DNA of 11,469 bases from a virus (taxonomy: Duplodnaviria > Heunggongvirae > Uroviricota > Caudoviricetes), in IMG/VR virus record IMGVR_UViG_2660238126_000001, positions 1 through 11,469 of that record; one strand, written 5' to 3'. This document shows, one piece after another, positions 1-11,469 of the stretch. The position numbers and the translations under genes are program-made. The notes beneath the pieces are model-generated. The model had not been told where the DNA came from. It did not search any database and saw nothing but the letters and a program-made list of their open reading frames with translations. Position 1 is the stretch's first letter. Each line of letters starts with the position of its first letter.

Positions 1-329
1 GGTATACGGAACAGTATGGCGTGAAGTGACCTGTGGGGCGAACTGGAATGGACATCACCAAGGACGAAACCTCCTCTCTCTGCAAAGGATAGTTATCCAT
101 CCGGGGCAACCTATACCTTTACCATAACTTCCGGCATAGCCACCTTGCTACAATCAAGGGGTGTTGAAGAAACATCCGTTTCGTGGTGCTTTTTTAGTCT
201 TTTGGGGATTTAAATTCCTATCGATGAACGGGGAGGAGATCTGGCCCTGGATGTTACCAACCGATCCCCGCAGACATTTGCTTTCAGAACAGTCTGAAAT
301 ATCAGTAATATCTGCAACAGGATGCCATT

Positions 330-347
330 CTTGTTTGCACGAACCAT
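330..347 (-). pseudogene. cII: cII 5' remnant: first 6 codons (MVRANK) with lambda-like RBS, then unrelated sequence
   Basis: Reverse complement of 330..360 reads aggaaatacttacat-ATG GTT CGT GCA AAC AA, matching the lambda cII start as I recall it. The downstream translation (NGILLQILLIF...) is low-complexity and not cII-like. Confidence 0.6.
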
Positions 348-426
348 ATGTAAGTATTTCCTTAGATAACAATTGATTGAATGTATGCAAATAAATGCAT
401 ACACCATAGGTGTGGTTTAATTGGAT

Positions 427-458
427 GCCCTTTTTCAGGGCTGTGATGTGTAAGAGCG
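427..458 (-). promoter_or_regulatory. nutR: nutR (boxA and boxB hairpin) N-utilisation site downstream of cro
   Basis: Minus strand reads cgctcttaca (boxA-like) followed by gccctgaaaaagggc (boxB inverted repeat), located between cro and the cII start as in lambda. Confidence 0.8.
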
Positions 459-465
459 GTGTTAT

Positions 466-675
<210 letters not shown>

Positions 676-690
676 TTAGTACATGCAATT

Positions 691-760
691 ATTATCACCG
701 CTAGAGGTAAAACAGTCAACACGCACGGTGTTAGATATTTATCCCTTGCGGTGATAGATT
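691..760. promoter_or_regulatory. Right operator region: OR1 (693..709), OR2 (717..733), OR3 (740..756), PR (-10 691..696, -35 714..719, minus strand) and PRM (-35 732..737, -10 755..760, plus strand)
   Basis: Three 17-bp sites tatcaccgctagaggta, caacacgcacggtgtta and tatcccttgcggtgata. OR2 and OR3 are identical to lambda as recalled and OR1 differs at one position. PR has ttgact-17-gataat on the cro strand; PRM has tagata-17-tagatt reading into cI, whose ATG at 767 is at the expected leaderless start. Confidence 0.9.
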
Positions 761-763
761 TAA

Positions 764-1480
<717 letters not shown>

Positions 1481-1519
1481 TGAAACCACTTTTATCTACA
1501 ATTTACAGGGCGGTAAACA

Positions 1520-2077
1520 TTGGCAAAAATAGATGATTATCAGCCAAGCCAAGTAGAAGTTGATAAAGTACTTTATTGTAAAAAAATAGTTAACTTTTCT
1601 GGCGTTAAATGGAAACAGAAACCAAGTCGCTCTGATATGTGGCTACAAGCTCATATCATCCCCTTGGATGAGGATTGTATACCTATACAAGGGCTAAAGT
1701 TTGAACTGAAATGGAAACCAGATCAGGATTCAGAACCTGATGACCCGATTTCTTACCCTAAAATAAATATTATTGCTTTCTATCATAACAAGAGGGTTTT
1801 CGCGGTAGATACCTATCACTTTGACAAACACACGAATAGTTACAAGGTCGATCATCCGAAGTACCAAGATATCATTTACGGTGCTCATTACCATGTATAC
1901 TATGAAGAAGCTGGATACTATAGTGATAGAATAGCGTTTCCAATCGAAGATGACATAAACCCAGATGACCTGGTAGGGTATTGGAATTACTTCTGTAAAC
2001 ATCTGAACATAACTTACTCTGGGAGAATACCTTTACCGCTTGAAGATGAGTCGGGGCAAATGGGGTTTGGAATATGA
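1520..2077 (+). CDS. Hypothetical protein A (185 aa), first gene of a two-gene cassette in the rexA position; acidic and rich in Tyr, His and Trp
   Basis: 558-nt ORF starting at TTG 1520, three codons after an in-frame TAA, with agggcgg about 10 nt upstream; the first in-frame ATG is codon 40 at 1637. Co-oriented with cI and visibly more AT-rich than the flanks. No transmembrane segment or recognisable catalytic motif by eye. Confidence 0.7.
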   Translation: MAKIDDYQPSQVEVDKVLYCKKIVNFSGVKWKQKPSRSDMWLQAHIIPLDEDCIPIQGLKFELKWKPDQDSEPDDPISYPKINIIAFYHNKRVFAVDTYHFDKHTNSYKVDHPKYQDIIYGAHYHVYYEEAGYYSDRIAFPIEDDINPDDLVGYWNYFCKHLNITYSGRIPLPLEDESGQMGFGI

Positions 2078-2826
2078 TGTGCTCAACAGTGATCTCACAA
2101 CTAGGTTTCGAATGCCATCCAATAGGCAAGACCTTGAGAATTATCAGTCCATTCACTTACTGTGATGATGGAGAGCATGTCGGTGCCTTTATCCGTGAAG
2201 TCAATGGTAGGTATTTAGTTAGTGACAGATGCGATGCCTTAATGAATATGGAGGCAAGAGGGATCTCGCTTACCAAAAAACGACTTGATGAGATACGACA
2301 ATTACTGCTTAAAGAAGGCGCAGAACTCAATGCTCGAGGAGAAATCATTGCTTGGGCAACAGAAAAGGATGTCGGTGCGATTACATCGAACATAATTAGA
2401 GCTGGTATACTCGCATCAACTTTGTCGTTAGACTGGTATCAGCCAGTTCAAGCTGAAAAGTTTGAAAGTATGGTTATTGATTATCTATATCACACAGAGC
2501 TTAGAGAGGCACTTTCTCTTCGTGAAAACGTATATGGCTTGAGTGGACATCAAATTACCGTCCCTGTAACAATAAAAACCGACATACCTAAATACGTTTT
2601 TACATCAAGCGTGAAACACGGAGGAAGCTGGAATAGTGCTTACTCATTGCTTGGGAAACTAATTGATCTTAAAGCTTCAAGTGAGGAGTATAACAACAGA
2701 TTTGTTGTTATAGACAGCGAAGCAATTGGTGATCAAATGCAACAACTCTCCTTACTCTTCCATGAATCAAGCCAAGTTCTACCATTCTCCAAAAGAGAGA
2801 CTTGGATTAAGAGACTTGCAGCATAA
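2074..2826 (+). CDS. Hypothetical protein B (250 aa), second gene of the cassette in the rexB position; soluble, with an N-terminal Cys/His cluster
   Basis: ATG 2074 overlaps the TGA stop of gene A (aatATGAtg), indicating translational coupling. 753-nt ORF ending at TAA 2824..2826, immediately followed by an intrinsic terminator. No lambda counterpart recognised. Confidence 0.8.
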   Translation: MMCSTVISQLGFECHPIGKTLRIISPFTYCDDGEHVGAFIREVNGRYLVSDRCDALMNMEARGISLTKKRLDEIRQLLLKEGAELNARGEIIAWATEKDVGAITSNIIRAGILASTLSLDWYQPVQAEKFESMVIDYLYHTELREALSLRENVYGLSGHQITVPVTIKTDIPKYVFTSSVKHGGSWNSAYSLLGKLIDLKASSEEYNNRFVVIDSEAIGDQMQQLSLLFHESSQVLPFSKRETWIKRLAA

Positions 2827-2831
2827 TACAA

Positions 2832-2857
2832 CCCGGCCTCAGCGCCGGGTTTTCTTT
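2832..2857 (+). terminator. Intrinsic terminator (tImm-like) closing the PRM immunity transcript
   Basis: cccggc-ctcagc-gccggg hairpin followed by ttttcttt. Sequence from here rightward to OL resembles the lambda rexB-distal / tImm region as I recall it. Confidence 0.8.
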
Positions 2858-3014
2858 GCCTCACGATCGCCCCACCTAAAAACACATAACCAATTGTATT
2901 TATTGGAAAATAAATAGATACAACTCACTAAACAACGCAATTCTGATCTCTCCTTACATCGCCGAGGCAATACACTCACTCGAAAAAATAAATCCATATA
3001 AAAAACATACAGAT

Positions 3015-3077
3015 AACCATTTGCGGTGATAAAATATCTCTAGCGGTGTTGACACAAATACCACTAGCGGTGATACT
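3015..3077 (+). promoter_or_regulatory. Left operator region OL3 (3015..3031), OL2 (3035..3051), OL1 (3059..3075) with PL promoter (-35 ttgaca 3049..3054, -10 gatact 3072..3077)
   Basis: Sites aaccatttgcggtgata, tatctctagcggtgttg and taccactagcggtgata. ttgaca-17-gatact reads rightward into nutL and N. Confidence 0.9.
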
Positions 3078-3117
3078 TAGCTCGTCAGCAGGACGCACTA
3101 ACCACCATTGAAGGTGA

Positions 3118-3148
3118 GGCTCTTAAAAATTTAGCCCTGAAGAAGGGC
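3118..3148 (+). promoter_or_regulatory. nutL: nutL (boxA ggctcttaa and boxB gccctgaagaagggc)
   Basis: boxA-like 9-mer followed by a perfect boxB hairpin sequence, about 45 nt downstream of the PL -10. Confidence 0.85.
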
Positions 3149-3258
3149 AGCATTCAAAGCAGAAAGCTTTGAGTAGCGCGAAATGCAGCTGCAAGACAGC
3201 AACCGTGGGGATAAGCATCACGGCGCGTTACTCAAAGCTAACTGACAGGAGAATCCAG

Positions 3259-3582
3259 ATGGATGCACAAACACGCCGCCGCGAACGTCGCGCAGAGAAA
3301 CAGGCTCAATGGAAAGCAGCAAATCCCCTGTTGGTTGGGGTAAGCGCAAAACCAGTTAACCGCCCTATTCTCTCGCTGAATCGCAAACCGAAATCACGAG
3401 TAGAAAGCGCACTGAATCCGATAGACCTTACAGTGCTGGCTGAATACCACGAACAGATTGAAAGCAACCTGCAACGTATTGAGCGCAAGAATCAGCGCAC
3501 ATGGTACAGCAAGCCTGGCGAACGCGGCATAACATGCAGTGGACGCCAGAAAATTAAGGGAAAATCGATTCCTCTTATCTAG
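3259..3582 (+). CDS. N: Antitermination protein N (107 aa)
   Basis: Translation MDAQTRRRERRAEKQAQWKAANPLL...KGKSIPLI with the arginine-rich motif, preceded by RBS aggagaatccag-ATG. The track's longer 3169 start is a TTG extension and is rejected. Confidence 0.96.
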   Translation: MDAQTRRRERRAEKQAQWKAANPLLVGVSAKPVNRPILSLNRKPKSRVESALNPIDLTVLAEYHEQIESNLQRIERKNQRTWYSKPGERGITCSGRQKIKGKSIPLI

Positions 3583-4137
3583 TTACTTAGATATTGGCCT
3601 TGGCTTTATCTCAATATTATATGGATCATAGCTGGCAACTAATTCAGTCCAGTAAATATCCTCAATAGGGAATAATATATGCTTCCCGTTCCATCGGGAA
3701 AAAGTTTTGTTCAACACACCAAGCTCAATCAACTCACTAATGTATGGGAATTGTTTTGATGTAACCACATACTTCCTGCCTTCATTAAGGGCTGCGCACA
3801 AAACCATAGATTGCTCTTCTGTAAGGTTTTGAATTACCGATCGCACTTTATCGTTTTGCATCTTAATGCGTTTTCTTAGCTTAAATCGCTTATATCTGGC
3901 GCTGGCAATAGCTGATAATCGATGCACATTAATTGCTAGCGAAAATGCAAGAGCAAAGACGAAAACATGCCACACATGAGGAATACCGATTCTCTCATTA
4001 ACATATTCAGGCCAGTTATCTGGGCTTAAAAGCAGAAGTCCAACCCAGATAACGATCATATACATGGTTCTCTCCAGAGGTTCATTACTGAACACTCGTC
4101 CGAGAATAACGAGTGGATCCATTTCTATACTCATCAA
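3583..4137 (-). CDS. sieB: Superinfection exclusion protein B (184 aa), membrane protein
   Basis: Translation MMSIEMDPLVILGRVFSNEPLERTMYMIVIWVGLLLLSPDNWPEY... matches lambda SieB from memory. It has hydrophobic N-terminal helices and is convergent with N. Confidence 0.92.
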   Translation of the reverse strand: MMSIEMDPLVILGRVFSNEPLERTMYMIVIWVGLLLLSPDNWPEYVNERIGIPHVWHVFVFALAFSLAINVHRLSAIASARYKRFKLRKRIKMQNDKVRSVIQNLTEEQSMVLCAALNEGRKYVVTSKQFPYISELIELGVLNKTFSRWNGKHILFPIEDIYWTELVASYDPYNIEIKPRPISK

Positions 4138-4261
4138 ACTGTAGGGGTTGTAATAGTTTATCCGATTTCTCGCTGTAGGGGTACACGAGAACCACCGAGC
4201 CTGATGTGGTTAAAAGACAGGCACAATCTTTACTACCGCAATCCACTATTTAAGGTGATAT

Positions 4262-4348
4262 ATGGAAGAAGAATTTGAAGAGTTCGAAGAGCATCCGCAG
4301 GATGTAATGGAACAGTACCAGGACTATCCGTATGACTACGACTATTGA
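4262..4348 (+). CDS. Small acidic ORF (28 aa, MEEEFEEFEEHPQDVMEQYQDYPYDYDY), lambda orf28-like
   Basis: ATG 4262 with upstream taaggtga; overlaps the ral start. Its position between sieB and ral matches lambda orf28 as recalled. Below the length cut-off of the ORF track. Confidence 0.5.
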   Translation: MEEEFEEFEEHPQDVMEQYQDYPYDYDY

Positions 4349-4511
4349 TAAGAATCAATGGTGTGGACAATTCAAGCGATGCAATGGATGCAAGCTGCAA
4401 TCGGAATGCATGGTTAAGCCTGAAGAAATGTTTCCTGTAATGGAAGATGGGAAATATGTCGATAAATGGGCAATACGAACGACGGCAATGATTGCCAGAG
4501 AACTTGGTTAA
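4332..4511 (+). CDS. ral: Restriction alleviation protein Ral, ending early at TAA (59 aa); the frame continues QNNKAA to TGA at 4530..4532
   Basis: Translation MTTTIDKNQWCGQFKRCNGCKLQSECMVKPEEMFPVMEDGKYVDKWAIRTTAMIARELG*. Lambda Ral is 66 aa as I recall, and 59 + 7 in-frame codons gives 66. Confidence 0.8.
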   Translation: MTTTIDKNQWCGQFKRCNGCKLQSECMVKPEEMFPVMEDGKYVDKWAIRTTAMIARELG

Positions 4512-4668
4512 CAGAACAACAAAGCTGCCTGATAGTGGCCTTTATTTTTGGCATAAATAACAGAATAAACACTGCACTGTGTATTCATTCCAACGAGTGA
4601 ATACACGGAGCAATGTCGCTCGTAACTAAACAGGAGCCGACTTGTTCTGATTATTGGAAATCTTCTTT

Positions 4669-4694
4669 GCCCTCCAGTGTGAGGGCGATTTTTT
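4669..4694 (+). terminator. Intrinsic terminator-like hairpin upstream of ea10 (tL-type, presumably read through under N antitermination)
   Basis: gccctc-cagtgt-gagggc stem-loop followed by gatttttta. Confidence 0.55.
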
Positions 4695-4714
4695 ATCTAT
4701 GAGGATATGAACAG

Positions 4715-5083
4715 ATGTCAAACATCAAAAAATACATCATTGATTACGACTGGAAAGCATCAATAGAAATTGAAATCGACCATGACGTAATGACAGAGGA
4801 AAAACTTCACCAGATTAATAATTTCTGGTCAGACTCTGAATACCGACTCAATAAACACGGCTCTGTATTAAATGCTGTATTAATCATGCTGGCGCAACAT
4901 GCTCTGCTTATAGCAATTTCAAGCGACTTAAATGCATATGGTGTTGTGTGTGAGTTCGACTGGAATGATGGAAATGGTCAGGAAGGATGGCCTCCAATGG
5001 ATGGTAGCGAAGGAATAAGAATTACCGATATCGATACATCAGGAATATTTGATTCAGATGATATGACTATCAAAGCCGCCTGA
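4715..5083 (+). CDS. ea10: Ea10 protein (122 aa)
   Basis: Translation MSNIKKYIIDYDWKASIEIEIDHDV...DSDDMTIKAA, in the lambda ea10 position between ral and cIII. Confidence 0.85.
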   Translation: MSNIKKYIIDYDWKASIEIEIDHDVMTEEKLHQINNFWSDSEYRLNKHGSVLNAVLIMLAQHALLIAISSDLNAYGVVCEFDWNDGNGQEGWPPMDGSEGIRITDIDTSGIFDSDDMTIKAA

Positions 5084-5155
5084 GCGCGGCGTTACCGCAT
5101 ACCAATAACGCTTCACTCGAGGCGTTTTTCGTTATGTATAAATAAGGAGCACACC

Positions 5156-5320
5156 ATGCAATATGCCATTGCAGGGTGGCCTGTTGCTGGCTGCCCTTCC
5201 GAATCTTTACTTGAACGAATCACCCGTAAATTACGTGACGGATGGAAACGCCTTATCGACATACTTAATCAGCCAGGAGTCCCAAAAAATGGATCAAACA
5301 CTTATGGCTATCCAGACTAA
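5156..5320 (+). CDS. cIII: CIII (54 aa), FtsH inhibitor that stabilises CII
   Basis: Translation [54 protein letters not shown] with RBS aaggag upstream. The track ORF 5163..5432 is a different frame. Confidence 0.9.
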   Translation: MQYAIAGWPVAGCPSESLLERITRKLRDGWKRLIDILNQPGVPKNGSNTYGYPD

Positions 5321-5432
5321 ATTCACTATCGCCACTTTTATTGGCGATGAAAAGATGTTTCGTGAGGCCGTCGACGCTTATAAAAAATGGATATTAATAC
5401 TGAAACTGAGATCAAGCAAAAGCATTCACTAA
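5289..5432 (+). CDS. kil: Kil (47 aa), host cell-division inhibitor
   Basis: Translation [47 protein letters not shown]. Overlaps the cIII 3' end and the gam 5' end as in lambda. Confidence 0.85.
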
Positions 5433-5803
5433 CCCCCTTTCCTGTTTTCCTAATCAGCCCGGCATTTCGCGGGCGATATTTTCACAGCTATTTCAGGAGT
5501 TCAGCCATGAACGCTTATTACATTCAGGATCGTCTTGAGGCTCAGAGCTGGACGCGTCACTACCAGCAGCTCGCCCGTGAAGAGAAAGAGGCAGAACTGG
5601 CAGACGACATGGAAAAAAGCCTGCCCCAGCACCTGTTTGAATCGCTATGCATCGATCATTTGCAACGCCACGGGGCCAGCAAAAAAGCCATTACCCGTGC
5701 GTTTGATGACGATGTTGAGTTTCAGGAGCGCATGGCAGAACACATCCGGTACATGGTTGAAACCATTGCTCACCACCAGGTTGATATTGATTCAGAGGTA
5801 TAA
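5387..5803 (+). CDS. gam: Gam (138 aa), RecBCD inhibitor
   Basis: Translation [22 protein letters not shown]... with internal Met ([15 protein letters not shown]...) corresponding to GamS, ending ...[10 protein letters not shown]. Confidence 0.95.
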
Positions 5804-5808
5804 AACGG

Positions 5809-6594
5809 ATGAGTACAGCACTCGCAACGCTGGCTGGGAAGCTGGCTGAACGTGTCGGCATGGATTCTGTCGACCCACAGGAACTGATCACCACTCTTCG
5901 CCAGACGGCATTTAAAGGTGATGCCAGCGATGCGCAGTTCATCGCATTGTTGATCGTCGCCAACCAGTACGGCCTTAATCCGTGGACGAAAGAAATTTAC
6001 GCCTTCCCTGACAAGCAGAACGGCATCGTTCCGGTGGTGGGCGTTGATGGCTGGTCCCGTATCATCAATGAAAACCAGCAGTTTGATGGCATGGACTTTG
6101 AGCAGGACAATGAATCATGTACATGCCGGATTTACCGCAAGGACCGTAATCATCCGATCTGCGTTACCGAGTGGATGGATGAATGCCGCCGCGAACCATT
6201 CAAAACCCGCGAAGGCAGAGAAATCACCGGACCGTGGCAGTCGCATCCCAAACGGATGTTACGGCATAAAGCCATGATTCAGTGTGCCCGTCTGGCCTTC
6301 GGATTTGCTGGTATCTATGACAAGGATGAAGCCGAGCGCATTGTCGAAAATACTGCATACACTGCAGAACGTCAGCCGGAACGCGACATCACTCCGGTTA
6401 ACGATGAAACCATGCAGGAGATTAACACTCTGCTGATCGCCCTGGATAAAACATGGGATGACGACTTATTGCCGCTCTGTTCCCAGATATTTCGCCGCGA
6501 CATTCGCGCATCGTCAGAACTGACACAGGCCGAAGCAGTGAAAGCTCTTGGATTCCTGAAACAGAAAGCCACTGAGCAGAAGGTGGCAGCATGA
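5809..6594 (+). CDS. bet: Bet / Red-beta single-strand annealing protein (261 aa)
   Basis: Translation [68 protein letters not shown]... matches lambda Bet from memory. Stop overlaps the exo start (ATGA). Confidence 0.97.
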
Positions 6595-7271
6595 CACCGG
6601 ACATTATCCTGCAGCGTGCCGGGATCGACGTGAGAGCTGTCGAACAGGGAGATGATGCGTGGCACAAATTACGGCTCGGCGTCATCACAGCTTCAGAAGT
6701 TCATAACGTAATAGCAAAACCCCGCTCCGGAAAAAAGTGGCCTGACATGAAAATGTCCTACTTCCACACCCTGCTGGCTGAGGTTTGCACCGGTGTGGCT
6801 CCGGAAGTTAATGCTAAGGCGCTGGCCTGGGGAAAACAGTACGAGAACGACGCCAGAGCCCTGTTTGAGTTTACTTCCGGCGTGAATGTTACTGAATCCC
6901 CGATCATCTATCGCGACGAAAGTATGCGCACCGCCTGCTCTCCCGATGGTTTATGCAGTGACGGCAACGGCCTTGAGCTGAAATGCCCGTTTACCTCCCG
7001 GGATTTCATGAAATTCCGGCTCGGTGGTTTCGAGGCCATAAAATCGGCTTACATGGCCCAGGTGCAGTACAGCATGTGGGTGACGCGAAAAGATGCCTGG
7101 TACTTTGCCAACTATGACCCACGAATGAAGCGTGAAGGCCTGCATTATGTCGTGGTTGAGCGGGATGAAAAGTACATGGCGAGTTTTGACGAGATGGTGC
7201 CGGAGTTCATCGAAAAAATGGACGAGGCACTGGCTGAAATTGGTTTTGTATTTGGGGAGCAATGGCGATGA
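6591..7271 (+). CDS. exo: Exo / Red-alpha 5'-3' exonuclease (226 aa)
   Basis: Translation [65 protein letters not shown]...EQWR matches lambda Exo from memory. Confidence 0.97.
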
Positions 7272-7450
7272 AGCATCCTCACGATAATATCCGGGTAGGC
7301 GCGATCACTTTCGTCTACTCCGTTACAAAGCGAGGCTGGGTATTTCCCGGCCTTTCTGTTATCAGAAATCCACTGATAGCACAGCGGCTGGCTGAGGAGA
7401 TAAATAATAAACGGGGGGCTGTATGCACAAAGCATCTCCTGTTGAGTTAA
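7262..7450 (+). CDS. Small ORF, lambda orf60a-like (62 aa from the first ATG; 60 aa if started at the second Met at 7268)
   Basis: Translation [31 protein letters not shown]...; overlaps the exo stop, in the orf60a position. Confidence 0.75.
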
Positions 7451-7614
7451 GAACGAGTATCGAGATGGCACATAGCCTCGCTCAAATTGGAGTCAGGTTT
7501 GTGCCAATACCAGTAGAAACAGACGAAGAATTTCACACGTTAGCCGCATCCCTTTCACAAAAGCTGGAAATGATGGTGGCGAAAGCAGAAGCAGATGAGA
7601 GAGACCAGGTATGA
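7423..7614 (+). CDS. Small ORF, lambda orf63-like (63 aa)
   Basis: Translation [63 protein letters not shown], in the orf63 position. Confidence 0.75.
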   Translation: MHKASPVELRTSIEMAHSLAQIGVRFVPIPVETDEEFHTLAASLSQKLEMMVAKAEADERDQV

Positions 7615-7690
7615 CAACCACTGAATGCATTTTTCTGGCAGCGGGCTTCATATTCTGTGTGCTTATGCTTGCCGACATGGGGCTTGTTCA

Positions 7691-7906
7691 ATGACACCTC
7701 AGCAAGAAAACGCCCTTCGCAGCATTGCCCGTCAGGCTAATTCTGAAATCAAAAAAGCCAGACAGCAGTTTCCGGATAAAAACGTCGATGACATTTGCCG
7801 TAGCGTACTAAAGAAGCACCGCGAAACGGTAACGCTGATGGGATTCACACCGACTCATTTAAGCCTGGCGATCGGCATGTTGAACGGCGTCTTTAAGGAA
7901 CGGTGA
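7691..7906 (+). CDS. Small ORF, lambda orf61-like (71 aa from ATG 7691)
   Basis: Translation MTPQQENALRSIARQANSEIKKARQQFPDKNVDDICRSVLKKHRETVTLMGFTPTHLSLAIGMLNGVFKER with gggg about 10 nt upstream. The track's 7625 start would read through a hydrophobic leader and is less likely. Confidence 0.65.
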   Translation: MTPQQENALRSIARQANSEIKKARQQFPDKNVDDICRSVLKKHRETVTLMGFTPTHLSLAIGMLNGVFKER

Positions 7907-7928
7907 ACATGAAAAGCAAAATCATCAG

Positions 7929-7949
7929 GGAGCTACAGGCTCCTTTTTT
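7929..7949 (+). terminator. Weak intrinsic terminator-like hairpin
   Basis: ggagc-tacag-gctcc followed by tttttt. Only a 5-bp stem. Confidence 0.4.
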
Positions 7950-8004
7950 ATTATTCGCATTCACCCTCAAGCGTATTAACCAACAATTCAGGGATTAATG
8001 AAAG

Positions 8005-8226
8005 ATGGCAGACATAATTGATTCAGCATCAGAAATTGAAGAATTACAGCGCAACACAGCAATAAAAATGCGCCGCCTGAACCACCAGGCTATATCTGCC
8101 ACTCATTGTTGTGAGTGTGGCGATCCGATAGATGAACGAAGACGACTGGCCGTTCAGGGTTGTCGGACTTGTGCAAGTTGCCAGGAGGATCTGGAACTTA
8201 TCAGTAAACAGAGAGGTTCGAAGTGA
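8005..8226 (+). CDS. DksA/TraR-family C4 zinc-finger protein (73 aa), lambda orf73-like
   Basis: CxxC...CxxC spacing in ...HCCECGDPIDERRRLAVQGCRTCASCQEDLE..., typical of TraR-type proteins. Length and position match lambda orf73 as I recall it. Confidence 0.8.
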   Translation: MADIIDSASEIEELQRNTAIKMRRLNHQAISATHCCECGDPIDERRRLAVQGCRTCASCQEDLELISKQRGSK

Positions 8227-8474
8227 GCGTAATTCACTCTCAGGCACTGCGTGAAGCGGCAGAGCAGGCAATGCATGACAACTGGGGATTTGACGCGGAC
8301 CTTTTCCATGAGCTGGTAACACCATCGATTGTGCTGACACTGCTGGATGAACGGGAAAGAAACCAGCAGTACATCAAACGCCGCGACCAGGAGAACGAGG
8401 ATATTGCGCTAACGGTGAGGAAACTGCGTGTTGAGCTGGAGACAGCAAAAATCAAAACTCAACGAGCAGCGTGA
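8223..8474 (+). CDS. Hypothetical coiled-coil-like protein (83 aa) in the ea22 position, terminated by TGA with a further open in-frame stretch downstream
   Basis: ATG (GTG?) at 8223 overlaps the orf73 stop. The translation is charged and helical-looking (...ERERNQQYIKRRDQENEDIALTVRKLRVELETAKIKTQRAA). I cannot confirm homology to Ea22. Confidence 0.55.
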   Translation: MSVIHSQALREAAEQAMHDNWGFDADLFHELVTPSIVLTLLDERERNQQYIKRRDQENEDIALTVRKLRVELETAKIKTQRAA

Positions 8475-8772
8475 GTAGAAGGTGTTATCTCGGATGGAAG
8501 TAAGCGTATTGCTGAACTGGAGGCCTGGGTTGAATACACAAGAGCTGCATACGTAAGAGCAAAAGACAAGGGAGATTTGATCAGAGTTATTACCCGACAA
8601 CCAACGGGATTTTACGCTTACGTACCATGTAATTAGGAATCCTTGAAGTGGCAGCCTAACTGCGGATACACTGAAATGGCGATTTGGTAACATGTTTCGC
8701 ACAAGGCTGTTACTACGCTTAAAGATAATCAGCCATGATTAAACGCTTTGTAAAAAGTAAAAGGAAATTACA

Positions 8773-9387
8773 ATGAAAAAATCAATACTAATTTTAGGGC
8801 TTACGTTAATTGTCTCATCTCAAATACCATCGGCAATGGCAAAAAATGAATCAAGACTTTGGGTTGTTGTTGATCGAACGGAAAGACATACCTGCCCTTC
8901 AAGTAAATGTGGAGTGGCTGGGAAACTATTTTTCAGGGAAGGCGTAGATTTTCTAGAAAAAAAAGGTGAATGGGTTCGTATAACTGAGCCATATTCAGCC
9001 TCATGTGTGGGAGGGGAAAGCGAATATATTAAAGAAGGTAATAAATCCTGCACAAGAAAAAACGGAATCGTCAATGGCAAGTTTTCAGAATGGGTTAAAC
9101 TTAGTGATCTTAGCAGTGAAAGGCCATCAGATCCTGCTGAAAATGCGAGCGGAGATGATACTTTAATCAAAGGATCTGATGACTACCGTATATACAAAAA
9201 AGAGTTTTCTTCGGCAGCTAGGAAGTTAATAAACGAAGGGGTCTGCACGGAAAGCGACTTTAAGGAAATCGGAGGGTGGATGGCATCAAGCAATAAGGGG
9301 AAAAACATCTATTTCACATATTGCGGAGGAATGACGTTGTCGAACAGAATATACCTAGACGTTAAAAGTGGAAAGACTTTTAGATAA
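8773..9387 (+). CDS. Secreted/periplasmic protein (204 aa) with a Sec signal peptide and an SH3b-like N-terminal region; AT-rich moron
   Basis: Signal peptide MKKSILILGLTLIVSSQIPSAMA followed by KNE. SH3b-like pattern in RLWVVVDRTERHTCPSSKCGVAGKLFFREGVDFLEKKGEWVRITEP. Seven Cys in the mature part. RBS aaggaaa precedes the ATG. Not part of lambda. Confidence 0.75.
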   Translation: MKKSILILGLTLIVSSQIPSAMAKNESRLWVVVDRTERHTCPSSKCGVAGKLFFREGVDFLEKKGEWVRITEPYSASCVGGESEYIKEGNKSCTRKNGIVNGKFSEWVKLSDLSSERPSDPAENASGDDTLIKGSDDYRIYKKEFSSAARKLINEGVCTESDFKEIGGWMASSNKGKNIYFTYCGGMTLSNRIYLDVKSGKTFR

Positions 9388-9458
9388 TATGATATTACCA
9401 ATGACAGTATTAATTTAATGCCTCCATAGAATTATCTCTAGGAAGTATGTATAAGAAA

Positions 9459-9492
9459 AGCCCGCACAATGAGCTGCTGCGGGCTTTGTGTT
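9459..9492 (+). terminator. Intrinsic terminator after the secreted-protein gene
   Basis: agcccgca-caatgagctgc-tgcgggct hairpin followed by ttgtgttatt. Confidence 0.6.
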
Positions 9493-9740
9493 ATTCGCCA
9501 TATTTTATGAAGCAAATACGACACTATAGATAATTAAGCGTTGCTGGTTGTCGATTCCTCACTCACTCCTGTTGATGGCTCTCTTCTTGTATGTGCCATT
9601 GAAGGGTAATATCGAGTAAAAAGATACCGGAAGTATCCGCGCCGCCATGATTGTCTTTCTCCTAATGCAGGAAAAGCAGAATGGCTAAATCATCAGCAGA
9701 GCGCAAAGTCGATCAGAGAGCCAAGCAAGCATCATCCGGT

Positions 9741-10019
9741 ATGCGTAAGCTGGAGCTTGTACTTGATGCTCAGGAAATTGAAATGCTGGATCGTAACTGA
9801 GCCACGCGCCGCTTCAGGCATGCGCCTTACGAGTTTGGTGAGTACATCGCGTTACTGAGCCGCCAGGATGATGCACGTGTGCGCTGGCGTATAAAATCGA
9901 TCAGCAGAAAACGTTGCGATAAGTGCGGCGAGAGAGTTCCTGTTAATTCATGCCCGTGTAATGGTGACTCACAATGCTGGGTGACCAAAGGCTGGCACGA
10001 AACAAAATTAATGATATAA
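9741..10019 (+). pseudogene. ea8.5: Ea8.5-like homeodomain/zinc-ribbon protein interrupted by an in-frame TGA at 9798..9800
   Basis: The frame reads MRKLELVLDAQEIEMLDRN*ATRRFRHAPYEFGEYIALLSRQDDARVRWRIKSISRKRCDKCGERVPVNSCPCNGDSQCWVTKGWHETKLMI*. The 72-codon segment after the TGA has no in-frame ATG and carries the Cys cluster. Total length (92 codons) and position match lambda Ea8.5. Confidence 0.5.
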
Positions 10020-10025
10020 ATCTCT

Positions 10026-10037
10026 GTGACATGTCAC
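10026..10037. promoter_or_regulatory. Perfect 12-bp palindrome gtgacatgtcac immediately 5' of the RBS of the 142-aa ORF
   Basis: Exact inverted repeat, followed by ggagg (10038..10042) and ATG 10048. Candidate operator or RNA hairpin. Confidence 0.4.
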
Positions 10038-10047
10038 GGAGGCGGCA

Positions 10048-10476
10048 ATGAAATTAGACCAGCAATATCTAAAAGATCTACTTATCGCATTCGAAAAAAC
10101 TCATGGCCCTGACACGATGCTTAGTGAACTAGAGGATAATGGCTTTAATAGATATGACCAAAATTTTATTTTCCATATGCGATTATTATGCGACTACGAA
10201 TTAATAGTCAGGGTTGATGGAAAACCTGGGTTCGGTCATATAATGTCCAACGAGTTAGGGGAAGGTGTTGGATATAGTTGGATCGAAGTACCACTGAGGT
10301 TGACAGCAAGAGGGCATGATTTTATTGCTGACTTGCGTCAAAAGGAGGTCTGGCAAACTATAAAAACAAACTTTAAGGATGAGGGAATTAGTACACTAAT
10401 AAGTGTTTCAAAATCACTAGCAAAAGGCTTTGCAAGGAAAAAGATAAAAGATATTACAGGAATAGATATTGAATAA
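10048..10476 (+). CDS. Hypothetical cytoplasmic protein (142 aa); AT-rich moron inserted between the ea8.5 and orf55 homologues
   Basis: Strong RBS ggagg 5 nt upstream of the ATG. Translation MKLDQQYLKDLLIAFEKTHGPDTMLSELEDNGFNRYDQNFIFHMRLLCDYELIVRVDG.... Lambda has only a short spacer here as I recall. Confidence 0.8.
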   Translation: MKLDQQYLKDLLIAFEKTHGPDTMLSELEDNGFNRYDQNFIFHMRLLCDYELIVRVDGKPGFGHIMSNELGEGVGYSWIEVPLRLTARGHDFIADLRQKEVWQTIKTNFKDEGISTLISVSKSLAKGFARKKIKDITGIDIE

Positions 10477-10558
10477 TTCTTAGCATCAGCAACTACTGCC
10501 TTTGGTGGAAATTATATCTGAACTCGCTACGGCGAGTTTTGTTTTATGGAGATGATAA

Positions 10559-10726
10559 ATGCACTTCCGAGTCACAGGTGAATGGAATGGAGAACCATTC
10601 AACAGAGTTATCGAAGCAGAGAACATCAATGACTGCTATGACCACTGGATGATATGGGCCCAGATAGCACATGCAGACATAACCAATATTCGAATTGAAG
10701 AACTGAAAGAACACCAAGCCGCCTGA
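10559..10726 (+). CDS. Small ORF, lambda orf55-like (55 aa)
   Basis: Translation MHFRVTGEWNGEPFNRVIEAENINDCYDHWMIWAQIAHADITNIRIEELKEHQAA*, in the position between ea8.5 and xis. Below the length cut-off of the ORF track. Confidence 0.65.
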   Translation: MHFRVTGEWNGEPFNRVIEAENINDCYDHWMIWAQIAHADITNIRIEELKEHQAA

Positions 10727-10738
10727 TGGCGGTTTTTT
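10718..10738 (+). terminator. Intrinsic terminator overlapping the orf55 stop
   Basis: gccgcc-tgat-ggcgg hairpin followed by tttttt. Confidence 0.6.
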
Positions 10739-10765
10739 CTTGCGTGTAATTGCGGAGACTTTGCG

Positions 10766-10984
10766 ATGTACTTGACACTTCAGGAGTGGAACGCTCGCCA
10801 GCGACGCCCAAGAAGCCTTGAAACAGTTCGTCGATGGGTGCGCGAATGCAGGATATTCCCTCCTCCGGTTAAGGATGGAAGAGAATATCTGTTCCACGAA
10901 TCAGCGGTAAAGGTTGACTTAAATCGACCAGTAACAGGTAGCCTTTTGAAGAGGATCAGAAATGGGAAGAAGGCGAAGTCATGA
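10766..10984 (+). CDS. xis: Excisionase Xis (72 aa)
   Basis: Translation MYLTLQEWNARQRRPRSLETVRRWVRECRIFPPPVKDGREYLFHESAVKVDLNRPVTGSLLKRIRNGKKAKS matches lambda Xis from memory. Confidence 0.96.
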   Translation: MYLTLQEWNARQRRPRSLETVRRWVRECRIFPPPVKDGREYLFHESAVKVDLNRPVTGSLLKRIRNGKKAKS

Positions 10985-11175
10985 GCGCCGGGATTTACCC
11001 CCTAACCTTTATATAAGAAACAATGGATATTACTGCTACAGGGACCCAAGGACGGGTAAAGAGTTTGGATTAGGCCGAGACAGGCGAATCGCAATCACTG
11101 AAGCTATACAGGCCAACATTGAGTTATTTTCAGGACACAAACACAAGCCTCTGACAGCGAGNNNCANNAGNGNTN
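10962..11175 (+). pseudogene. int: Integrase Int, N-terminal arm-binding region only (about 71 codons); lambda-like sequence stops after a patch of ambiguous bases
   Basis: Translation MGRRRSHERRDLPPNLYIRNNGYYCYRDPRTGKEFGLGRDRRIAITEAIQANIELFSGHKHKPLTA matches lambda Int from memory and overlaps the xis 3' end. The defined bases within 11161..11175 are consistent with int, but from 11176 the sequence no longer encodes Int and stops at 11211..11213. Confidence 0.8.
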
Positions 11176-11469
11176 ATGTACGAGCTAAATGTTACTCCGT
11201 TAAAATAAATTAGTAACAAACGCCCTATAACGTACTGAAAATTATGCCTGTGATCTAGCGCCAAAAATCAGTATTTCGGCGTGAACTCGCAAAATATTAA
11301 CGATTCAGCCGTGATAGTGGGATAAACACCTTAGAACGCCGGATAAAGACTGATAATTGTCTTCGACGGTCGGGTAAAACGAGACATCGCCCCGGCACGA
11401 ATCACTACTTAACACGGATGGCTTCAGCCCCCGTTTTCACACGAAGGTCGATGCGGCGACCAAATCGTT

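Follow-up and report, generated by a model that had tools for sequence, protein, structure and literature searches.

A two-gene cassette in place of rexAB beside the repressor of a lambdoid prophage, most likely an exclusion cassette remotely related to the PDC-M24 defence candidates

Introduction

The viral sequence IMGVR_UViG_2660238126_000001 (Caudoviricetes; positions 1 to 11,469, the whole stretch of 11,469 nucleotides that was analysed and that is called the window below) carries two overlapping genes, here named A and B, between a lambda-type cI repressor and the early leftward promoter. The locus raises the question of what such a pair does for the prophage. An annotation made from the letters alone, the sequence-only reading, had seen in A and B a co-translated cassette of the defence type and in the N-terminus of B a possible metal-binding knuckle. 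The analysis described here indicates that A-B is most likely a repressor-linked prophage exclusion cassette, remotely related to the PDC-M24 candidates and already flagged by a machine-learning screen.

The cassette stands in the place of rexAB

The window was compared by blastn with lambda (NC_001416) and with the lambda annotation, and three collinear blocks were found. It is the early-left region of a lambdoid prophage with lambda immunity, in an orientation opposite to that of the lambda map. The first block runs from cro to the final base of cI (window 331-1481, lambda 38376-37226, 96.5% identity), the second from just past rexB through the OL operators and PL promoter (window 2830-3171, lambda 35826-35496, 88% identity) and the third covers N and sieB (window 3233-4219, lambda 35386-34400, 99.5% identity). 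Homology to lambda ends at the cI stop codon (window 1481) and restarts at 2830. The 1348 bp in between (1482-2829) stand for the 1399 bp of lambda that hold rexA and rexB (37225-35827), and both junctions are exact to the base. The G+C content of A (0.378) and B (0.405) is lower than that of cI (0.455) and N (0.503). The features of this region are as follows.

767..1480, + strand: cI repressor, lambda type (Pfam Peptidase_S24 E 4.6e-29, HTH_3 E 2.6e-11)
1482..2829, + strand: swapped cassette A + B, 1348 bp, without lambda homology (blastn against NC_001416)
1520..2077, + strand: gene A, 185 amino acids, TTG start, partner of B
2074..2077, + strand: ATGA start/stop overlap of A and B, read from the sequence
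2074..2826, + strand: gene B, 250 amino acids, with a DUF1828 domain (residues 1-121) and a DUF1829-like domain (residues 127-250)
2830..2860, + strand: terminator-like hairpin and T-run (terminator scan: stem of 8 bp, 6 of them G-C, followed by TTCTTTGCCT)
3049..3077, + strand: PL promoter (TTGACA, 17 nt, GATACT) with OL operators (promoter scan, 10/12 matches; the region aligns to the lambda OL/PL interval)

The coupling of the B start to A that had been noted from the sequence is plain to see, as at 2074 the letters ATGATG lay the TGA stop of A (2075-2077) over the ATG of B. The hairpin begins 4 nt past the B stop codon and marks the right edge of the cassette, and PL/OL lie 3' of it, at about 3000-3080, where PL starts a separate early-left transcript for N. 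No + strand terminator was predicted by the terminator scan between cI and 2830. Because the cassette lies directly 3' of cI and ends at a terminator before OL/PL it is most likely co-transcribed with the repressor in the lysogen; judged by position, the predicted cI-A-B transcript would begin with cI and stop at the hairpin at 2830-2860. That the cassette sits exactly where lambda keeps rexAB makes it most likely an anti-phage module of the dormant prophage.

The interval between cI and N as a defence hotspot

The interval between cI and N has been described as a mosaic hotspot, occupied by rexAB in lambda and by bstA in BTP1, with the cargo probably sharing the repressor promoter (PMC8585504). 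Approximately 70 bp at window 2830-2900 are all that many lambdoid phages have in common with the window, and these phages carry other cargo 5' of this sequence. In phage BP-4795 that cargo consists of three open reading frames (ORFs) which match the PADLOC profiles PD-Lambda-2_A (E 2.5e-42), PD-Lambda-2_B (E 3.8e-50) and PD-T4-9_C (E 3e-11). These matches, together with the published positions of rexAB and bstA, are the reason for regarding the slot as a defence hotspot. PD-Lambda-2 and BstA offer a parallel in position, lying in the same slot of sibling lambdoid phages with the right-hand junction of ~70 bp conserved, although their proteins are unrelated to A and B and the defence function of those systems is backed by experiment.

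Two further observations on the slot may be recorded here. The three BP-4795 reading frames (AJ556162.1, 8720-10061) are annotated as 'hypothetical' ORFs 22, 21 and 20, which correspond to the PD-Lambda-2_A, PD-Lambda-2_B and PD-T4-9_C matches respectively. The PD-Lambda-2_B match covers only profile positions 3-125 of 402, and by their sequence matches the three look like an unannotated, possibly truncated or variant system of the PD-Lambda-2 type. In phage 2G7b (locus L019, 2622-3473) the slot holds a 283-amino-acid protein with no Pfam or PADLOC match, which is a candidate for a further cargo.

The comparison with lambda RexA/RexB is one of arrangement. Both pairs fill the slot from the cI stop to the terminator before OL/PL, lie on the same strand as cI and form a two-gene unit, and expression in the lysogen would be expected to be alike. 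There is no sequence similarity of RexA/RexB to A/B: no DNA homology was found over 1482-2829 and no Rex family appears among the Pfam, PHROG and PADLOC hits of A and B. RexB has been described as a membrane ion channel (PMC8585504), whereas A and B have no membrane segments. The B reading frame (2074..2826, + strand) encodes 250 amino acids with a maximum 19-residue Kyte-Doolittle mean of 1.19, so that no transmembrane segment is predicted, in agreement with the soluble protein that had been proposed; the corresponding maximum for A is 0.45. A RexB-like membrane effector was considered as a candidate and is ruled out by these hydropathy values. For RexA a resemblance to RdgC, a DNA-binding protein, has been reported (PMC12315714); A has no match to a known fold.

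Distribution of the cassette and conservation of its order

Most of the cassette (80% or more of a 1420-bp query that spans it) was matched in 239 of 5426 complete E. coli genomes, and the best of these matches are 99.6% identical. The cassette is found at 99.4-99.5% identity in phages ev017, ev207, PhiR57_1 and PhiR63_2 and in one Stx1a-converting phage. Beyond these close copies, a search of 1.84 billion cluster representatives with a B-family profile returned 237 clusters at E<=0.001, and the full-length hits are nearly all about 250 amino acids long. A contig scan with a narrower B alignment found eight loci in reference genomes, among them Izhakiella, Yersinia, Providencia, Xenorhabdus, Pantoea and Thorsellia and one short contig. 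A homologue of A lies directly 5' of B in all eight, and a repressor with helix-turn-helix (HTH) and Peptidase_S24 domains lies 5' of the pair in the seven that are long enough to show it.

Homologues of B at 25-30% identity, from Pseudomonas aeruginosa and metagenomes, keep the order of repressor, A-like gene and B. The Pseudomonas-type order is cro (on the opposite strand), S24 repressor, sometimes a small gene such as CsrA, A-like gene (169-174 amino acids) and B, and the replication modules beside these loci differ. In several of these prophages the small CsrA-family gene separates the A-like gene from the repressor, or lies close by and is oriented with the operon (loci L030, 4195-4431; L032, 4212-4412; L031, 7402-7635). 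Where the B homologue is distant, the A-like protein encoded 5' of it can still be aligned with A, over ~95 residues at the C-terminus (BLASTP E 2e-8). In 24 of 27 related loci the A-like reading frame runs exactly 4 nt into B, and the order cI, A-like, B-like with this overlap recurs in prophages of the Enterobacterales and of the Pseudomonas type down to ~25% identity.

One B relative lacks an A-like gene. It belongs to a type I restriction-modification (RM) locus, where it follows a small HTH gene and is flanked by HsdM/HsdS on one side and HsdR on the other. That locus (L027, 3436-9191) is itself a dense embedded island, and between HsdS and HsdR it also contains an HTH_3 gene, a 344-amino-acid protein with no Pfam match, DUF4268 and Fic-domain genes and 'dnstrm_HI1420'.

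The place beside cI, strictly conserved as it is across very distant relatives, is what would be expected if the cassette served the phage's own lysis-lysogeny switch or its induction and had no role against other phages, and a role of RexA/RexB in the switch of their own phage has been reported (cited in PMC12315714). Such a purely internal function is nevertheless improbable, given that one B relative belongs to a type I RM locus that is not part of a prophage and that the PADLOC candidate family (see below) was derived from cassettes found within BREX, DISARM and type I RM systems. It is also at odds with the repressors themselves, since the cassette follows a cI of 237 amino acids here and a different cI of 231 amino acids in PhiR57_1 and in strain 2013C-3342. 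The occurrence of two cI types before the same cassette suggests that it is not tied to one repressor.

Earlier computational predictions for the family

Two computational screens had already touched on this family. The PADLOC model PDC-M24B is matched by B at 37 bits (E 5.8e-10) over the full length of both models, which is a weak score, and by 43 of 48 B-family members. PDC-M24A is matched by A at 18 bits (E 4.8e-4) over 60 residues of the conserved C-terminal core; the A-like proteins of the Pseudomonas type give no PDC-M24A hit. A and B are adjacent and on the same strand, as the PDC-M24 definition requires (PADLOC's own thresholds were not applied), and the gene order is alike, with a small A followed by a B of ~250 amino acids. 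The low scores suggest that A-B is a remote sister clade of PDC-M24. The settings differ in that PDC-M24 comes from BREX, DISARM and RM loci whereas the A-B clade lies 3' of prophage repressors. PDC-M24 is one of 145 guilt-by-embedding candidates, as yet untested, that were collected from BREX, DISARM and type I RM cassettes (Payne et al. 2024 preprint, 10.1101/2024.01.29.577857).

The second screen is DefensePredictor, in which WP_000968517.1 (log-odds 6.3) and WP_000968518.1 (log-odds 5.6) are each listed as a 'Predicted novel defense gene' (PMC13092281). The E. coli protein WP_000968517.1 differs from B by a single residue, E145D; WP_000968518.1 is a sibling accession, a 250-amino-acid E. 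coli DUF1828 protein whose identity to B was not compared. Neither accession is present in the DefensePredictor supplementary tables of tested units, as far as these were covered (Table S6 in portion). No functional study of DUF1828, DUF6978, PDC-M24 or the carrier phages was found in the full-text literature.

Domains and fold of B

Pfam DUF1828 (PF08861) matches residues 26-110 at 33.5 bits, above the gathering cut-off of 22 (E 5.2e-8), and is matched by 45 of 48 B relatives as well; a zinc-finger family is not found among the Pfam hits of B. DUF1829 (PF08862, clan PDDEXK) gives no HMMER hit in B and a single one among the 48 relatives (E 0.0077). The HHpred results for WP_000968518.1 in a DefensePredictor supplementary table (PMC13092281) place DUF1828 at residues 25-114 (99.5%) and DUF1829 at residues 155-241 (98.8% probability). 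In PHROGs B belongs to phrog_1960, to which no function is assigned there, and NCBIfam gives no match for A or B. Searches of the PDB sequences with B, A and the B-family profile returned only ankyrin/DARPin low-complexity matches, designed proteins and spidroin, none of them meaningful.

The AlphaFold model of B has a mean predicted local distance difference test (pLDDT) score of 82.5 and shows two domains joined by a low-confidence linker (residues 122-126). Residues 1-121 are a DUF1828 domain with the fold of type III secretion chaperones and YbjN, and residues 127-250 are a DUF1829-like domain with a PD-(D/E)xK nuclease-like fold. The N-terminal domain shares its fold with the type III secretion chaperones and YbjN/DUF2170, but at a sequence identity of just 6-16%; in B the domain is fused to a nuclease-like domain, and a secretion system is absent near B. 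By analogy with these proteins the N-terminal domain may bind peptides.

The C-terminal domain has the alpha-beta-beta-beta-alpha-beta core of the PD-(D/E)xK superfamily, but neither the catalytic Asp that opens strand 2 nor the (D/E)xK of strand 3 is present. The aligned positions are Pro164, Phe176 and Ser178 in B and its clade and mostly Pro164 and Gln176 in the clade of the Pseudomonas type, whereas a distant subgroup of the B family has Asp164 with Asp/Glu176. From this alignment we read the canonical catalytic residues as lost in the prophage-linked B clades, which sets the B clade apart from DUF1828/DUF1829 (PF08861, PF08862) in the acidic residues of these strands. Residues conserved across the family are Asp51 (100%), Pro26, Asp32, Gly33, Gly155-x-Ser157-Gly158, Lys195, Asp198 (96%) and Asp/Glu214. 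B could itself be the effector; it would then be a nuclease whose PD-(D/E)xK active site is non-canonical and which is controlled by A and by its own chaperone-like domain. With Pro164, Phe176 and Ser178 standing in its clade where the distant subgroup has Asp164 and Asp/Glu176, this is rather unlikely.

A chaperone-like domain in B that could neutralise a partner would also suit a toxin-antitoxin or addiction pair, one that mainly stabilises the prophage rather than excluding phages; the two-gene operon with overlapping frames and the carriage of A-B on mobile elements would fit such a pair equally. This explanation is given little weight here. No toxin or antitoxin family beyond PDC-M24 is matched in Pfam, NCBIfam or PADLOC, an autoregulatory DNA-binding domain was not found, and the pair shares the transcription unit of the repressor with no obvious promoter of its own. 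The B relative without an A-like gene, lying within an RM locus, is a further point against it.

The N-terminal cysteines of B

Cys3, Cys14, His15, Cys30 and His35 are present at the N-terminus of B as had been described, and the sequence-only reading had taken them as a Cys/His metal-binding knuckle central to function. The clustering is genuine. Five of the 10 Cys/His residues of B lie within the first 35 residues (binomial tail 0.007). A further cysteine, Cys53, had been overlooked, and with it all four cysteines of B lie within the first 53 residues, for which the chance under random positions is ~0.002. Among the closer relatives (n=21, 48-84% identity) conservation reaches at least 90% for Cys3, Cys14 and His35; His15 and Cys30 vary.

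Across the family the picture is different. In 112 full-length relatives Cys3 is conserved in 68% and Cys14 in 73%, but His15 in 7%, Cys30 in 4% and His35 in 18%, and all five residues occur together in only 3 of the 112. Cys3 and Cys14 are both present in 76 of these proteins and both absent in 30, Cys14 occurs alone in six and Cys3 alone in none (Fisher p ~1e-21, without correction for relatedness). That these two are kept or lost together while the others vary suggests that the family feature is a coupled cysteine pair and not a four-ligand site. In the model the five residues are spread over a helix, two strands and a loop of the chaperone-like fold, an alpha/beta domain of ~120 residues, and do not form a small knuckle; no CxxC or HxxxH spacing is present in B. 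We conclude that a knuckle central to the function of B is very unlikely. A zinc knuckle or finger was also considered as a class for B and was rejected, as only Cys3 and Cys14 of the four ligands required are conserved and the characteristic short spacing is absent. It is a matter of speculation that the two-cysteine site could bind a metal across a dimer or together with A.

The Ser/Thr-rich C-terminal part that had been described for B is a weak feature, the Ser+Thr content being 17.8% in residues 150-250 against 14.4% overall, a slight enrichment.

Gene A

The product of A belongs to phrog_2017, its matches to DUF6978 and PDC-M24A are below threshold, and no recognisable fold match was found for it. 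The residues W31, R92, D97, H104, N106, H123, H125, W155, F158, N163, P173, G179 and Q180 do not vary among 17 diverse sequences. The Gly-Gln motif is part of the C-terminal tail, which is disordered in the model (residues 175-185, pLDDT below 50). Conservation within a stretch predicted to be disordered is what a short motif recognised by a partner would be expected to show. The A-like proteins nearly all start with Met-Ala-Lys, and with Met-Ala in the rest, even at very low identity.

A model for the cassette

The earlier view of A and B as a co-translated two-gene cassette of the defence type is supported by context: by the replacement of rexAB, the synteny with a repressor, the relative embedded in an RM locus, the PD-Lambda-2 matches in the same slot and the two independent computational screens. 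On this evidence A-B is probably a module made by the lysogen that protects it against other phages, by exclusion or by abortive infection. In the mechanism that we propose, cI, A and B would be transcribed together in the lysogen, with the transcript stopping at the hairpin at 2830-2860, and the A-B pair would protect the lysogen against other phages. B would be the sensor or regulator, which holds or controls A through its chaperone-like domain, and A would be the effector.

The role of sensor or regulator is proposed for B because it lacks the canonical acidic residues and has the N-terminal fold of peptide-binding secretion chaperones. The role of effector is proposed for A from its invariant Asp/His/Asn/His/His set and its conserved C-terminal Gly-Gln tail. 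This division of labour, in which B binds A through the chaperone-like domain, is put forward only tentatively. A more specific version is less likely still. It would make A-B a mechanistically new, soluble, two-protein abortive-infection or exclusion system and an allele of rexAB, in which B, with its degenerate nuclease-fold domain and secretion-chaperone-like domain, senses a phage product and releases A, a small effector of a fold not seen before with a His/Asp metal centre, which is otherwise held via its Gly-Gln tail.

Several points weigh against the reading of A-B as a defence module with these roles. The PDC-M24 models are matched at low scores, 37 bits by B and 18 bits by A, PDC-M24 is itself an untested candidate, and no experiment on the cassette was found. 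Transcription from the repressor promoter is deduced from position only. As neither A nor B has a membrane segment, the membrane mechanism of RexB does not apply. A has no fold match, and its label as effector comes from conserved residues alone. The alignment from which the loss of acidic residues in B was read is at 20-30% identity and could be shifted, and judged by sequence Ser157, Lys195, Asp198 and Asp/Glu214 could form a non-canonical active site in B.

Other features of the window

The neighbouring genes that were placed by coordinates are listed below.

466-666, - strand: cro
3259 (ATG) to 3582: N
3583-4137, - strand: sieB
5809-6594: bet
6591-7271: exo

After sieB the gene order is Ea10, gam, bet, exo, a TraR-type zinc finger, an Ea22-like gene, xis and int. 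The sieB gene is back to back with N and 99.5% identical to that of lambda (Pfam SieB E 1e-29, phrog_6399 E 2e-114); it gives the prophage a second exclusion function, located ~750 bp away from A-B.

Between the Ea22-like gene and xis, in a stretch of low G+C (about 0.38-0.40), a 204-amino-acid reading frame (8773-9387, + strand) has an N-terminus resembling a signal peptide (MKKSILILGLTLIVSSQIPSAMA) and no Pfam or PADLOC match; its product may be a secreted or envelope protein of lysogenic conversion. A 142-amino-acid DUF2513 protein (10048-10476, + strand; E 7e-11) is encoded just 5' of xis/int by an accessory gene, again of low G+C (0.37). Ambiguous bases at 11162-11175 break the start of the integrase reading frame (translation XXXXXX) and are an artefact of sequence quality or masking.

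Significance

Lambdoid prophages are known to swap exclusion genes in the interval between cI and N, and the cassette described here is a clean natural replacement of rexAB in a phage of lambda immunity, which makes it easy to test in the best-understood of phage backgrounds. If no phenotype were found, A-B would be one more uncharacterised pair of prophage accessory genes. A positive phenotype would mean a new class of effector and a first function for the DUF1828/DUF1829 and DUF6978-like families. As the cassette is common in E. coli and is present in a Stx1a-converting phage, it could shape which phages, therapeutic phages included, are able to infect pathogenic E. coli.

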